39,725 nt of DNA from IMG/VR virus record IMGVR_UViG_638341086_000010; one strand, written 5' to 3'. This DNA comes from a virus (taxonomy: Duplodnaviria > Heunggongvirae > Uroviricota > Caudoviricetes). Positions 26,429 through 30,432 of the stretch are shown here, in pieces. Position 1 is the first letter of the stretch. Each line of letters begins with the position of its first letter. A model generated the notes under the pieces. That model did no database searches. It saw only the letters and a program-made list of their open reading frames with translations, and was not told where the DNA came from. Position numbers and translations under genes: made by a program.

Positions 26429-27226
26429 TTACTCTCTGGAAGCTTTTCTTATCTCTCTTGGTGTTATATTAAAACGATTATGAAATCTTTCAGTAAAACG
26501 AGAAGGACACTTATAACCATTTTCTCTGGCAATCTCGCTTATAGGTTTTACCGTCGTTTGTATAGCAGACAACGCATTATTTAACCTCACATCGTCCAGT
26601 ATACTTTGGAAACTTACCCCCTCGCTTGCTAGACGGCGATGTAATGTAGAAACAGAAATGTAGAGATATCGAGCAACCTTGTTTGCTGTCCATTTTGTGC
26701 CGGGTTCGGATAGCAGCAGGTTATAACAACGACTTATCAATGATTGTTTACTATATGATAAAAGTAAATGATTAACATGATTCACTCCTAACGAAAGTAG
26801 AACGCCCATTGCTAAGTGCTCCTGAATTTTAGTTGAGAAGCCTCGGGAAACAGATGTTTTTAGTTGCTCCCAACAATATATTAACTCAGGATTCTGAGGT
26901 AAAAAGAAACTTGTTTTGTTACGTATTTGATCAGTTACCGTATAAAGTTTTTGGAAACTCTCAATTAAATCAATGGGTAAGTAAAGCATTTCTGCAAGAT
27001 AAAGCCCTGCTTCAGGATAATTCTCAATATAAAATTCATAACCACAAGGAAATAATATTATTTGATTATTATCAACAGTTAAAGTATGCGTCTCCCAATT
27101 GATAACTTTCTTTCCCTGACGGATACGACACAAAGCTGGCATAAGAGGCTTAACCCTATGAATCTCATGATGTTTATGCATCCGTATTTCTTCGATCTTT
27201 AAGTTAGTCTTACCTCTTGCCAGCAT
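26429..27226 (-). CDS. ybcM: AraC-family transcriptional regulator, 265 aa, YbcM-like
   Basis: C-terminal AraC-type HTH region (…[23 protein letters not shown]… …[20 protein letters not shown]…); length and position after ybcL match DLP12 YbcM as recalled. Confidence 0.8.
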
Positions 27227-27235
27227 ACTCTCACC

Positions 27236-27787
27236 CTACTTTATCTCATAAACTGGTGTTATCTCAGCGGTTGCGATTTTATTAGCATTAAGCATATAAC
27301 CAACTAACGCTCCGCTGGAGTTAGAATCTACAGGAATCTTTTCAGTTTTTAGAGCCCATACTTTAAACTGGTAATGATGTGGTTTATCTCCTTTAGGAGG
27401 ACATGCGCCACCAAACCCAGCATAGCCAAAATCATTTCGGCCTTGAACAGCACCAGTCGGCAGTTTTGTTCCATCACGTCTCCCTGCATCAACGGGCAAA
27501 TATGTTATTGTTGCTGGAATATTAACAACAGTCCAATGCCACCAACCACTGCCTGTAGGTGCATCTGGATCATATACAGTTACGGCAAAGCTTTTGGTAC
27601 CTTCAGGAACACCAGACCAGGTTAATGAGGGCGATGTATTACCACCTTCACACCCAAATCCAGAAAAGACATGAGACGTTGTAAGTTGCTCTCCTGTTTT
27701 TATTTCATTACTAGTGACCTGAAATGCTGCAGCCTGCGCAGAAAATGTTATGAATGCCAATACAGTTGAAACGATAAGTGTTTTCAT
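27236..27787 (-). CDS. ybcL: Secreted PEBP/RKIP-family protein, 183 aa, YbcL-like
   Basis: N-terminal signal peptide MKTLIVSTVLAFITFSAQAAA followed by PEBP-like motifs (…YDPDAP… …GxHHY…); matches DLP12 YbcL as recalled. Confidence 0.8.
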   Translation of the reverse strand: MKTLIVSTVLAFITFSAQAAAFQVTSNEIKTGEQLTTSHVFSGFGCEGGNTSPSLTWSGVPEGTKSFAVTVYDPDAPTGSGWWHWTVVNIPATITYLPVDAGRRDGTKLPTGAVQGRNDFGYAGFGGACPPKGDKPHHYQFKVWALKTEKIPVDSNSSGALVGYMLNANKIATAEITPVYEIK

Positions 27788-28003
27788 AAAAACCTCTTTG
27801 TTATGACCTATCGTTATTTTATTTGATATTCCTTTATCTCATTATGCATAAAGGCGCAATGTTTATGCAAAAGCAATCACAATTGTACCCCCAACCCAAT
27901 TATTTGCCACAATATACACAAAGCACATTGATACTATCTAAAAACTCTGCTTTATTATTAGTAATACCTACGAAAGTCGGTGTTATTTTTTAACCTACCA
28001 TTC

Positions 28004-28053
28004 AAAATACGTGACATACACCATTTTGCTCATAATAATTTGTCACGTATTTT
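28004..28053. repeat. 13-bp perfect inverted repeat AAAATACGTGACA ... TGTCACGTATTTT with 24-bp spacer in the ybcK-ybcL intergenic region
   Basis: Read directly from sequence, in an AT-rich roughly 460-bp intergenic region upstream of ybcL. Function unknown (operator or recombinase site). Confidence 0.4.
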
Positions 28054-28251
28054 CAGTATTTGAATCTGCGACCAAGAGTTCTCACCTAACAAATGATTAA
28101 GATTGTATAGCTCATTTACTACCCCAATACAGCCGTACAAAACTCGCTTGTGGGAGCAAACAAAGTAATTACCCATTAAGTTTCGTCAAAGATAATTAAT
28201 TCTGTCTTGCACTTTATCACCATAGCATAACTTAAAATCCGAGATCATTAT

Positions 28252-29778
28252 TTAGAAATAAATCTCACCATCAACCATATATTTGAGAGCACTTATCGCC
28301 TGCTGGGCGTATATTACTTTCATTAAAGGATAGTGTTTAAAAACAATGCCATTCATAAAATAGATATCACAGGTTTTATTATCCGTATTAATTATGATTT
28401 TTTCGAATGTTTTATAGGCAAGTGTACGGCATAACTCTCGTCCATTTTTACTGGTTAAGTCAATAGCATAAAAATCACTGACTGAATTTACACCTTTACT
28501 CTTCAAAGTTTTCAATGATACCGAAGCCCTTCGTAATTCCTTATCTAATAGTCTTATTTTCTCTGCTATAGCGGTAACTTCAGGCGCGACAGACAATGCA
28601 ACGATTAAATTATTAATTTTCATCTGAAGCTCAATAATTTTTAACTCTAAAGTTTCATTAGCATCTTTCTTGTTTTCAACTGGTTGAATTTTGCTACAAT
28701 TAAAAAGCAATTCATTAATGATATTATAATCAACCAAATCTCTTTTTATTGATGGCCTGTCACATCGATGTAATCTTCTCATCGGACAAACATAATAGCC
28801 ATGCAAACTTCCAGATACCGCATGAACAATCATGGTATTACCACAAGCCTCACACTTCATAACTGTTCGAAGTAGATTTATTAGCATAGGATTCTTGCTA
28901 CTATTGCTAATACCAAAAGGTGCCAACCGAATTTCCTGTACAGCGTAAAACAAATCATCTGATATAACTCTGGGATAATAGCCAGCGATTTCACTTATCC
29001 CTTTCCCTCTTGCACGATATGAAGGTACGCATATACCTATCAGAGCTTTATTCGCTAATAATTTTTCAATTACAGAAGGTCCCCATGCACTTTCTTTTCC
29101 TGAGAAATTCTTTACAGCATGATCATTTAAATACTTGGCTATTGCATTCAATGAGCGCCTTTCCATCCTGAGTTTAAAAATTAGCTCAATAGTTTTCACC
29201 CTGTCGGGGTCTGGAACAAAAGCCGTTCTTTTGTCATCTAAGGAGAGCCATCTCGGACAAGACGCCGTCATAATCGTACCTGATTCCATTGCATCCTGCC
29301 GTTTTTTCTTCCATGATAATTTAACCCTACTTGACTTTATCTCGCTTTCTTCATTTGCCCTTTGTGCTATAAGTATGGCTTTTATTAATGAATATGGCTC
29401 ATTCAAAGAGTCAATATTATAGACTGTATTGTCGCAAAGAGTTATAACATCAATACCGTGATTCAAAATCAATTTCAGACGTTCAATCGCTTCACCGACT
29501 TTTTCTCTTGAAAGTCTGTCCAGACTTTCAACTAACAATGTAGTTCCTGGCAATATATAACCATGCTCTATAGCATCTAAAAATTCCGAAAAAGCTCCTG
29601 ATTGTGCATGCTTTCCTTTGAATGCACTTAATCCTAAATCTTCATATGTTATGGTATCAAGATAATAATCACTATTTACCTTTAACCATTCAGCAATAAG
29701 TCTTCTCTGTCGGTTTAATGAGTCACCAGACATCTGACCTGGTGATGAAAATCGCATATATGCTATGGCTTTTTTCAT
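28252..29778 (-). CDS. ybcK: Large serine recombinase, 508 aa, YbcK-like
   Basis: N-terminal resolvase-type catalytic domain (MKKAIAYMRFSSPGQ…) followed by a long recombinase extension with Cys-rich motif (CEACG…C…C), typical of large serine recombinases; matches DLP12 YbcK as recalled. The gene is markedly AT-rich. Confidence 0.85.
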   Translation of the reverse strand: MKKAIAYMRFSSPGQMSGDSLNRQRRLIAEWLKVNSDYYLDTITYEDLGLSAFKGKHAQSGAFSEFLDAIEHGYILPGTTLLVESLDRLSREKVGEAIERLKLILNHGIDVITLCDNTVYNIDSLNEPYSLIKAILIAQRANEESEIKSSRVKLSWKKKRQDAMESGTIMTASCPRWLSLDDKRTAFVPDPDRVKTIELIFKLRMERRSLNAIAKYLNDHAVKNFSGKESAWGPSVIEKLLANKALIGICVPSYRARGKGISEIAGYYPRVISDDLFYAVQEIRLAPFGISNSSKNPMLINLLRTVMKCEACGNTMIVHAVSGSLHGYYVCPMRRLHRCDRPSIKRDLVDYNIINELLFNCSKIQPVENKKDANETLELKIIELQMKINNLIVALSVAPEVTAIAEKIRLLDKELRRASVSLKTLKSKGVNSVSDFYAIDLTSKNGRELCRTLAYKTFEKIIINTDNKTCDIYFMNGIVFKHYPLMKVIYAQQAISALKYMVDGEIYF

Positions 29779-30032
29779 GGTGACACCTGCTAACGTATGC
29801 TTTTATAAACCTTAGTGGTGGGATATAATTTTTGTTTAATTTTTATTTAAAAAGACAATTAAGGTCACATTATCTTGAATATACAACAATAATCGTATTG
29901 CAATTTTCTTACGCCATAATCTTGAAAGCACAAAAGAATACATAAAAAATAAAGACATTAACAAAAAGCATAAAACGAGGCTCATATAAATATAAGAGCC
30001 TCCATATTTTAGTCGTTTAGAAACAAATTATT

Positions 30033-30365
30033 TTAATGTGGTGTGCTTCGTGACAATAAATTAATAACCAACACACCGGCACAAATCAACATCATGCCTA
30101 TAATGGCTGGCAGGTCCAGCCGTTGGCCGAAAAATCCCCATGACAGTAAACTAATCAGGACAATACCGACTCCTGACCAGATAGCATAAGCAATCCCTGT
30201 AGGAATATAAGCCAGCGTCTGAGCTAATAACCAGAATGATGCACAATAACAAATAATTGTACCAACAGATGGCCATAACCGTGTAAAACCTTCTGAAAAC
30301 TTCATTAAGGTTGTACCAATGACCTCTGCAAGTATTGCACCACCAAGATAAATATAAGGGTTCAT
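30033..30365 (-). CDS. emrE: Small multidrug resistance (SMR) efflux transporter EmrE, 110 aa
   Basis: From MNPYIYLGGAILAEVIGTTLMKFSEGFTRLWPSVG the translation matches E. coli EmrE as recalled (four TM helices, conserved Glu14); internal ATG at 30365 chosen over the ORF-track start. Confidence 0.9.
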   Translation of the reverse strand: MNPYIYLGGAILAEVIGTTLMKFSEGFTRLWPSVGTIICYCASFWLLAQTLAYIPTGIAYAIWSGVGIVLISLLSWGFFGQRLDLPAIIGMMLICAGVLVINLLSRSTPH

Positions 30366-30432
30366 AGCATATTCTTTCCTGTTCAAACTGGAGAGAATTG
30401 TACTACAGTTTGAACTCAACTCACCTGTTTCA

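Follow-up and report, generated by a model that had tools for sequence, protein, structure and literature searches.

The DNA analysed here, IMG/VR virus record IMGVR_UViG_638341086_000010 (39,725 nucleotides, hereafter the window), is a complete lambdoid prophage of the DLP12 type in reverse orientation. Between its ren gene and an insertion sequence (IS) of the IS3 family lies an AT-rich block containing emrE, ylcJ, the large serine recombinase gene ybcK, ybcL, and ybcM. The block is a composite mosaic of independently assorting modules and not a unit. Very probably it is accessory (moron) DNA, composite in origin, that fills the stretch between ren and the ninB promoter, and not a nested mobile element. 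Its genes, other features, and borders are as follows.

26366-26397, minus strand: backbone promoter remnant with -35 TTGATT at 26396-26391, a 17-nt spacer, and -10 CATAAT at 26373-26368 (scan match 9/12)
26398-28210, minus strand: ybcL-ybcM cargo cassette of 1813 bp, which fills a variable slot; relatives carry other cargo at the same two breakpoints
26429-27226, minus strand: ybcM, AraC/XylS-family regulator of 265 amino acids (aa; Pfam HTH_18, E=9.5e-17)
27236-27787, minus strand: ybcL, periplasmic PEBP/Raf-kinase-inhibitor-like protein with a signal peptide, 183 aa (Pfam PBP, E=7e-42)
27943-28210, no strand: 268-bp linker, present only in the window (A-type) arrangement
28211-30441, minus strand: emrE-ylcJ-ybcK module, whose genes occur together in 1426 Escherichia coli genomes and in viable phages
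28252-29778, minus strand: ybcK, large serine recombinase of 508 aa (Pfam Resolvase, Recombinase, and Zn_ribbon_recom)
29836-29985, minus strand: ylcJ, small hydrophobic open reading frame (ORF) of 49 aa inside the 5' leader of ybcK
29978-30003, minus strand: hairpin GAGGCTC(N12)GAGCCTC followed by GTTTTAT, just downstream of emrE, with 12-nt arms that are 11/12 complementary
30033-30365, minus strand: emrE, multidrug/quaternary-cation efflux pump of the SMR family, 110 aa (NCBIfam SMR_efflux_EmrE)
30433-30735, minus strand: ren, the flanking backbone gene, whose last 9-27 nt contain the right-hand border of the foreign DNA

The base composition sets the block apart from the rest of the window. 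The G+C content of the block (26398-30441) is 0.362 against 0.536 for the remaining sequence with the IS excluded, and the lowest value of any 4044-bp segment outside the block is 0.473. The G+C content at third codon positions is 0.26-0.34 in emrE, ybcK, ybcL, and ybcM and 0.48-0.67 in the backbone genes, and the intergenic spacers of the block have a G+C content of 0.27-0.37. A sequence-only reading had described this stretch from emrE to ybcM as AT-rich, with a large serine recombinase, a PEBP protein, and an AraC regulator beside emrE and with no role in the phage life cycle. All of this was borne out: the profile across the window is not uniform, Pfam and NCBIfam confirm the gene content and ylcJ is added to it, and none of the block genes matches a function in phage structure, replication, or lysis. 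By its composition, the block is foreign accessory cargo. No RNA family was found within it with Rfam, and no defence model of PADLOC was matched by YbcK, YbcM, YbcL, or EmrE.

All four larger genes of the block are under purifying selection. The ratio of nonsynonymous to synonymous substitution (dN/dS) of ybcK between E. coli allele groups is 0.09-0.10, like that of the replication gene P (0.07-0.10), and the values against the chromosomal allele are 0.12 for ybcM, 0.09 for ybcL, and 0.01 for emrE.

Comparison with relatives places the left boundary of the block at 26398 and the right boundary at 30441-30460, in the 3' end of ren, where homology to the copy at the fliE locus stops at 30441 and homology to phage PhiR5_1 at 30460. 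These borders are slightly wider than those of the sequence-only reading, which lie within ~30 bp of them. The 30419/30420 of that reading is the end of the longest ORF, with a TTG start, and the true ATG start of emrE is at 30365. The segment 26364-30646 is 99.7% identical to renD-emrE-ylcJ-ybcK-ybcL-ybcM of E. coli K-12-type genomes, that is, to DLP12, so the gene content of the block is already known and annotated. DLP12 of K-12 also shares the gene order through ybcM and the intD integrase. However, it continues ybcM-ylcH-ybcN and retains the genes from ylcH to Rz, which the window has lost through an IS3-family-mediated deletion, whereas K-12 DLP12 has lost the lambda-like head and tail genes and an intact ren, P, and O, all of which are still present in the window. 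The block in itself therefore adds little, its genes being annotated K-12 genes and its base-composition anomaly the expected signature of a moron.

We searched 5426 complete E. coli genomes for the parts of the block. The ylcJ-ybcK module is present in 1426 genomes, with a median of one copy and a maximum of two per genome, and the phage-type emrE allele is present in nearly as many (1407). The emrE gene is found in 3692 genomes, phage-type ybcLM in 669, and the exact window arrangement with its 268-bp linker in 674, the linker being single copy in each; the counts listed for independent assortment of the modules are 1426, 3257, 3692, and 674. All the ybcK contexts inspected share the order ren-emrE-ylcJ-ybcK. 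In strain NRZ94505 and phage 4A7, this order is followed by different cargo without ybcL-ybcM, either a P22_AR_C fragment with a small ORF or a reversed alpha/beta hydrolase, and homology to the window is lost exactly at 28210/28211 and regained at 26397/26398 (L002, L010). In O157:H7, ybcK and emrE are present and the slot contains only a scrap of ~250 bp.

The reverse combination also exists. About 2587 of the genomes (~48%) carry emrE-ybcL-ybcM adjoining fliE, at ~91% identity and without ylcJ-ybcK, in a decayed prophage. This island is the ybcL locus of uropathogenic E. coli (UPEC) and is found in most non-K-12 E. coli; it has the same three genes under strong purifying selection and differs from the window in lacking ylcJ-ybcK and the 268-bp linker. 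In the copy of strain CCUG 73778, window positions 27943-30025 are absent. This copy still includes 74 bp of Q, the greater part of ylcH, the backbone promoter, and the final 9 nt of ren. The fliE-locus island is thus a fossil nin region of a decayed lambdoid prophage, carried by about half of the E. coli genomes searched. A chromosomal emrE-ybcL-ybcM locus as the source of the phage cargo was rejected, since the locus itself keeps the Q, ylcH, promoter, and ren fragments. In CCUG 73778 (L001, 11770-13995, fliE-yedK locus), an IS200/IS605 tnpA gene lies alongside the island.

The module is carried by the infectious phages PhiR70_1, PhiR68_2, PhiR34_1, 4A7, 1W, Perceval, and Turner and hence travels by packaging. 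In three related ybcK prophages with the chromosome junction in view, the ends lie at tyrosine integrases, one at argU, one at icd, and one at a third locus; ybcK is in the interior. In E. coli, neither the block nor its ybcK part was seen outside lambdoid phage DNA. The sequence-only reading had pointed to prophages in which emrE-ybcK-ybcL-ybcM occur without lambda late genes; the same segment is known from K-12 DLP12, and the modules also occur in separate combinations.

To catalogue the cargo downstream of ybcK, we used the best 80 IMG/VR loci from an alignment scan with the ybcK family, which are of the E. coli type only and served this cataloguing and not a sampling of distant contexts; 76 of them had both the ybcK and the backbone anchors. 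Among these 76, at least nine cargo types of 320-1854 bp, and two further types with an added IS, lie between the ybcK stop and the backbone. Every cargo type ends on the same nucleotide. The boundaries on the ybcK side vary (41, ~280, ~330, ~417, and ~486 nt after the ybcK stop) and are mostly gene ends. One cargo, lying between ybcK and ylcH in some E. coli prophages (L082), is the 314-aa BstA (PADLOC E=3.8e-121), a characterised abortive-infection defence protein (PMC8585504). Further cargoes are a BD-FAE/alpha-beta hydrolase lipoprotein and a 260-aa Cys-rich protein, and slot ORFs of 168, 118, and 105 aa gave no family match.

The invariant left edge is a sigma-70 promoter, TTGATT-17-CATAAT, whose hexamers are conserved and whose spacer is variable in the junction alignment of the cargo types. 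This promoter normally drives ylcH-ybcN(ninB)-ninE, and in relatives it is followed by a conserved hairpin (GTCACCGGAG...CTCCGGTGAC), ylcH, and ybcN (ninB); its counterpart in one relative (L004) lies at ~8005-8033. The edge overlaps a conserved TTGAT-N8-ATCAA dyad and is a module edge common to E. coli, Enterobacter, and HK639-type phages. The dyad was considered as an attachment (att) site and rejected, being the -35 hexamer and spacer of the promoter and present in phages without ybcK as well.

The same fixed edge with different cargo is found in phages that have no ybcK. The slot of PhiR5_1 contains three small reversed ORFs, a full-length rha, and the 168-aa ORF known downstream of ybcK elsewhere; that of PhiR30_1 contains an acyltransferase and a lipoprotein, and those of HK639 and Enterobacter phage CobraSix contain a theta-like protein and ORFs without known function. 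Because phages without ybcK are equally variable at this edge, the variability of the slot is a property of the ren-to-ninB interval of the backbone and is independent of YbcK. From ren to the ninB promoter, the backbone thus has a hypervariable slot for accessory and defence genes, one edge of which is fixed by a promoter. In an Atlantibacter-type prophage, a 646-aa SIR2_2 protein, which is defence-like, occupies the same interval (L107, 5755-7695).

The diversity just 3' of ybcK could also be ascribed to YbcK itself, as an integron-integrase-like enzyme that captures cargo directly downstream, and both the number of cargoes and their common end nucleotide would agree with such a mechanism. 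In addition, ybcK is mosaic: against the non-A allele, its 5' 750 nt show 3 differences and its 3' 777 nt show 44, and it is the 3' half, coding for the DNA-recognition domains, that varies with the type of cargo downstream (vs L002 and L010). However, phages without ybcK have the slot and its edge too, in one case together with the 168-aa cargo at 95.6% identity. The fixed end is a promoter, it is the end next to the recombinase that varies, and no repeated site lies between the cargoes. Integron-like cassette capture was rejected on account of the phages without ybcK; it is largely refuted, and we consider it extremely improbable.

The comparison with PhiR5_1 shows how the right-hand part of the block came to lie where it does. 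Homology breaks 27 nt before the ren stop (window 30460) and resumes at rha codon 147, ~125 nt after the ybcK stop in sister arrangements, and emrE-ylcJ-ybcK replaces three small ORFs and the 5' 146 codons of rha. The remnant of rha in the sister arrangements is a 107-aa P22_AR_C fragment. This junction is a replacement scar of illegitimate recombination and not a conservative site-specific insertion.

For the recombination history, we infer the following. The parts of the composite, namely emrE-ylcJ-ybcK, the 268-bp linker, and ybcL-ybcM in a slot for many alternative cargoes, would have been joined by illegitimate recombination, one join having truncated rha in the sister arrangements. In the window arrangement, the rha fragment and its cargo would in turn have been replaced by the linker and ybcL-ybcM. 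Reshuffling would then proceed through homologous recombination between conserved flanking sequences, namely ren and P to one side of the block and the ninB promoter, ylcH, and ybcN to the other. The DNA moves with the phage, being packaged in infectious phages and integrated by the phage tyrosine integrase.

Several points weigh against the composite reading and are given here together with a rival model. In this model, YbcK mobilises an integrative or transposable element that comprises either the block as a whole or only its 2083-bp ylcJ-ybcK segment (27943-30025), in the manner of Tn4451 and Tn5397, which are driven by large serine recombinases. Compared with the emrE-ybcL-ybcM copy at fliE, the segment is a clean indel, with an imperfect direct repeat (7/9; TCTAAAAAC / TTTAGAAAC) on its flanks. 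An intact enzyme that is under selection but has no assigned substrate, as is the case for YbcK, leaves room for an unseen site-specific activity; the relatives of YbcK are solitary low-G+C genes in varied mobile-DNA contexts. Attachment sites of large serine recombinases are imperfect dyads of ~40-50 bp next to the gene or at the element ends, and 200 bp downstream of ybcK there is a near-perfect dyad of 54 bp, similar in size to an att site, between ybcK and ybcL in the 268-bp linker (28002-28055). Its arms are 14/15 complementary with a 24-nt spacer, its core is a perfect 13 nt (AAAATACGTGACA / TGTCACGTATTTT, at 28004-28016 / 28041-28053), and it folds better than 200/200 shuffles (z = -2.7). 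Lastly, the exact coincidence of the left boundaries is presumably explained by selection on the promoter.

However, the median copy number of the module is one and the maximum two in the 1426 genomes, nearly as many genomes (1407) have a phage-type emrE allele, and ren-emrE-ylcJ-ybcK was the one context wherever we inspected it; the 2083-bp segment as a mini-transposon was rejected for this single context and these copy numbers. In the comparison with PhiR5_1, the ends differ and rha is truncated by a replacement. The inverted or direct repeats found where the block ends were all short, AT-rich, and of chance quality, so terminal repeats were rejected as ends of the block. The 54-bp dyad is the only att-sized feature near ybcK, coincides with no breakpoint, and occurs only in the window arrangement (674 genomes), once per genome with no second copy; it could be a terminator or an operator. 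No common dyad pattern and no counterpart to it were found near YbcK relatives at eight other loci. In the Atlantibacter-type prophage (L107), a diverged 229-bp direct repeat of the start of the DUF1367 gene (9623-9851 / 12609-12831) brackets the YbcK homologue, a KGG gene, and DinI; this repeat is a mosaic joint, a scar of homologous recombination. A YbcK-mobilised element is therefore very unlikely. The sequence-only reading had suggested that the block entered as a separate mobile unit or remains one today. This is not supported, given separately assorting modules, a promoter at one edge, and the rha-truncating replacement, and the att-like dyads for which that reading proposed a search at the boundaries are reduced to the promoter on the left.

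As accessory filling of the ren-to-ninB-promoter interval, the block resembles the lambdoid morons of the Hendrix type and defence hotspots. It shares with them presence or absence between genes that are adjacent in relatives, AT-rich composition, swappable conserved flanks, and dispensability for phage growth, and defence cargo in the form of BstA is among the alternatives (PMC8585504). The contents of the interval differ in PhiR5_1, PhiR30_1, HK639, CobraSix, and 4A7. Compared with other such morons, the block of the window is several morons stacked, one of them a full-length gene of the serine integrase type, which is unusual cargo.

The YbcK protein has an N-terminal resolvase domain (PF00239, E=3.8e-19) followed by the C-terminal domains PF07508 and PF13408, and it belongs to PHROG 95 "integrase" (E=6e-120). 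In an alignment of 23 sequences, down to 28% identity, R9, S11, D87, R88, and R91 are invariant, and so are C309, C312, C331, and C339 of the zinc ribbon. We take the former residues to correspond to R8, S10, D67, R68, and R71 of gamma-delta resolvase. The single sequence gave no match to the PDB sequences; the family profile, which was needed, aligns with the C-terminal domain of A118 integrase (4KIS) over 285 positions (E=1.1e-15) and more weakly with the catalytic domain of TP901-1 integrase and the N-terminal region of phiC31 integrase. YbcK shares the domain architecture, the catalytic Ser/Arg/Asp, and the zinc ribbon and coiled coil of the large serine recombinases (A118/LI, phiC31, TP901-1; SpoIVCA, XisF; TnpX, TndX). 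It differs from these in that its gene is not at the end of an element, a tyrosine integrase is already present in the prophage, and no cognate att sites were identified. YbcK is not the prophage integrase and probably does not act on the block borders. Judged from its catalytic residues and the selection on its gene, it is probably functional; in the literature search, no report of YbcK as a recombinase was found among 35 papers mentioning ybcK.

The relatives of YbcK at 40-60% identity come from Atlantibacter, Yersinia, Erwinia, Pantoea, Kluyvera, Citrobacter, and Ewingella, and a length of 505-522 aa is kept in most of the closer ones, some database entries being shorter. Some relatives occupy the nin region in lambdoid prophages, which have a tyrosine integrase as well, or a position between replication genes and Q. 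Others are the last gene after tail-fibre genes, followed by host genes (Erwinia, Ewingella) or by a second, P2-like prophage (Yersinia), and others lie in island-like or plasmid-like DNA. In Citrobacter koseri (L016, 7145-10530), a relative of 50% identity stands head-to-head with a 555-aa protein with a faint Shufflon_N match, in relaxase-bearing DNA resembling a plasmid or an integrative and conjugative element. This arrangement hints that some members of the family may serve DNA-rearrangement systems.

The gene may alternatively be a relic of the integration module of another phage, stranded by mosaic recombination and either functionless, with decay still to come, or kept for a role other than recombination. 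Relatives of 50-56% identity that are the last gene after the tail-fibre genes occupy a possible integrase position, and no partner site was found. Furthermore, a Rho/NusG-dependent terminator in the ybcK leader keeps the gene silent in K-12 (PMC4150792), and over-expression of ybcK has the odd phenotype of raised tolerance to the solvent sabinene, for which no mechanism was proposed (PMC7181518). Against this stand the low dN/dS, equal to that of gene P, the invariance of the catalytic and zinc-binding residues in the 23 relatives with the length kept in most closer ones, and the retention of ybcK in viable phages. The recombinase is of full length with all catalytic residues and shows none of the truncation or inactivation that the sequence-only reading had weighed, and we consider a relic unlikely.

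More speculatively, the YbcK clade, seen in several Enterobacterales genera at 40-60% identity with all catalytic residues conserved, might consist of solitary cargo recombinases in the accessory slots of temperate phages and islands, with a DNA target yet to be found; the purifying selection was measured between E. coli alleles only. We hold this to be doubtful. Possible roles of such enzymes are back-up integration, excision or rearrangement coupled to induction at other places in the host or phage genome, and action against competing elements, and the 54-bp dyad could be one YbcK site. The residual interest of the locus is the activity of YbcK, an intact and conserved enzyme of the serine integrase type in the most studied bacterium.

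EmrE scores 240.6 bits against the NCBIfam cut-off of 226 (SMR_efflux_EmrE) and is a canonical SMR pump. YbcL scores 399.8 bits against a cut-off of 277 for an NCBIfam equivalog (YbhB/YbcL PEBP family); in the window it is of the K-12 type except for V94I, and seven residues differ from the fliE-locus allele. YbcL is periplasmic, and its UPEC variants suppress neutrophil migration (PMC4810123). The C-terminal double helix-turn-helix (HTH_18) of YbcM scores 61.5 bits against the Pfam gathering score of 33.6. Of the lysogenic-conversion functions that the sequence-only reading proposed for the pump, the PEBP protein, and the regulator, those of EmrE and YbcL are plausible. The regulator ybcM may control its neighbour genes.

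Promoter-like matches in the block are no more frequent than in shuffled sequences. The hairpin at 29978-30003, which follows emrE, looks like an intrinsic terminator. Expression of ybcK would occur mainly during induction, when antiterminated early-right (pR) transcription reads through from ren.

The remaining features of the window are the following.

319-909, plus strand: DNA invertase of the Pin/Gin type, 196 aa (Resolvase and HTH_7)
1007-1582 and 1582-4614, both minus strand: tail-fibre assembly and tail-fibre genes beside the invertase
~1000-24000, minus strand: tail and head genes, including tail fibre, Lom, J, and terminase Nu1 (23504-24049)
24993-25055: flank of the IS3-family element on the bor/iss side
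25056-26365, plus strand: IS3-family insertion sequence (IS629/IS1203-like) of 1310 bp, with an ALIL frameshift pseudoknot at 25391-25507
26366-26397: flank of the IS3-family element on the ninB-promoter side
30400-34100: immunity and replication region with a YdaT-like cII, O, P, and ren
right end of the window: recombination genes and the tyrosine integrase IntD (38562-39725)

The IS3-family element has no target-site duplication, its flanks being ACG and TAA. It fuses bor codon 21 (truncated bor/iss) to a point 2 nt downstream of the -10 hexamer of the ninB promoter, and ylcH, ybcN, ninE, ybcO, rusA, ylcG, Q, and the lysis genes are deleted at it. The deletion at the element extends from bor as far as the ninB promoter. 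With the nin, Q, and lysis genes deleted, the block does not adjoin an intact late region, and the prophage is defective, unable to finish the lytic cycle. The position between ren and the late region given by the sequence-only reading therefore stands on the ren side; on the late side, the neighbour is the IS3-family element.

The same reading had counted YbcK as a second recombinase beside the integrase. YbcK is indeed a full-length extra recombinase, but it is one of three in the window (IntD, YbcK, and the Pin/Gin-type invertase). The neighbours of the invertase gene are the genes for tail-fibre assembly and the tail fibre, as is usual where inversion switches the host range. A match to the Rfam family IS009 lies at 1041-1239 (minus strand), within the tail-fibre assembly gene.

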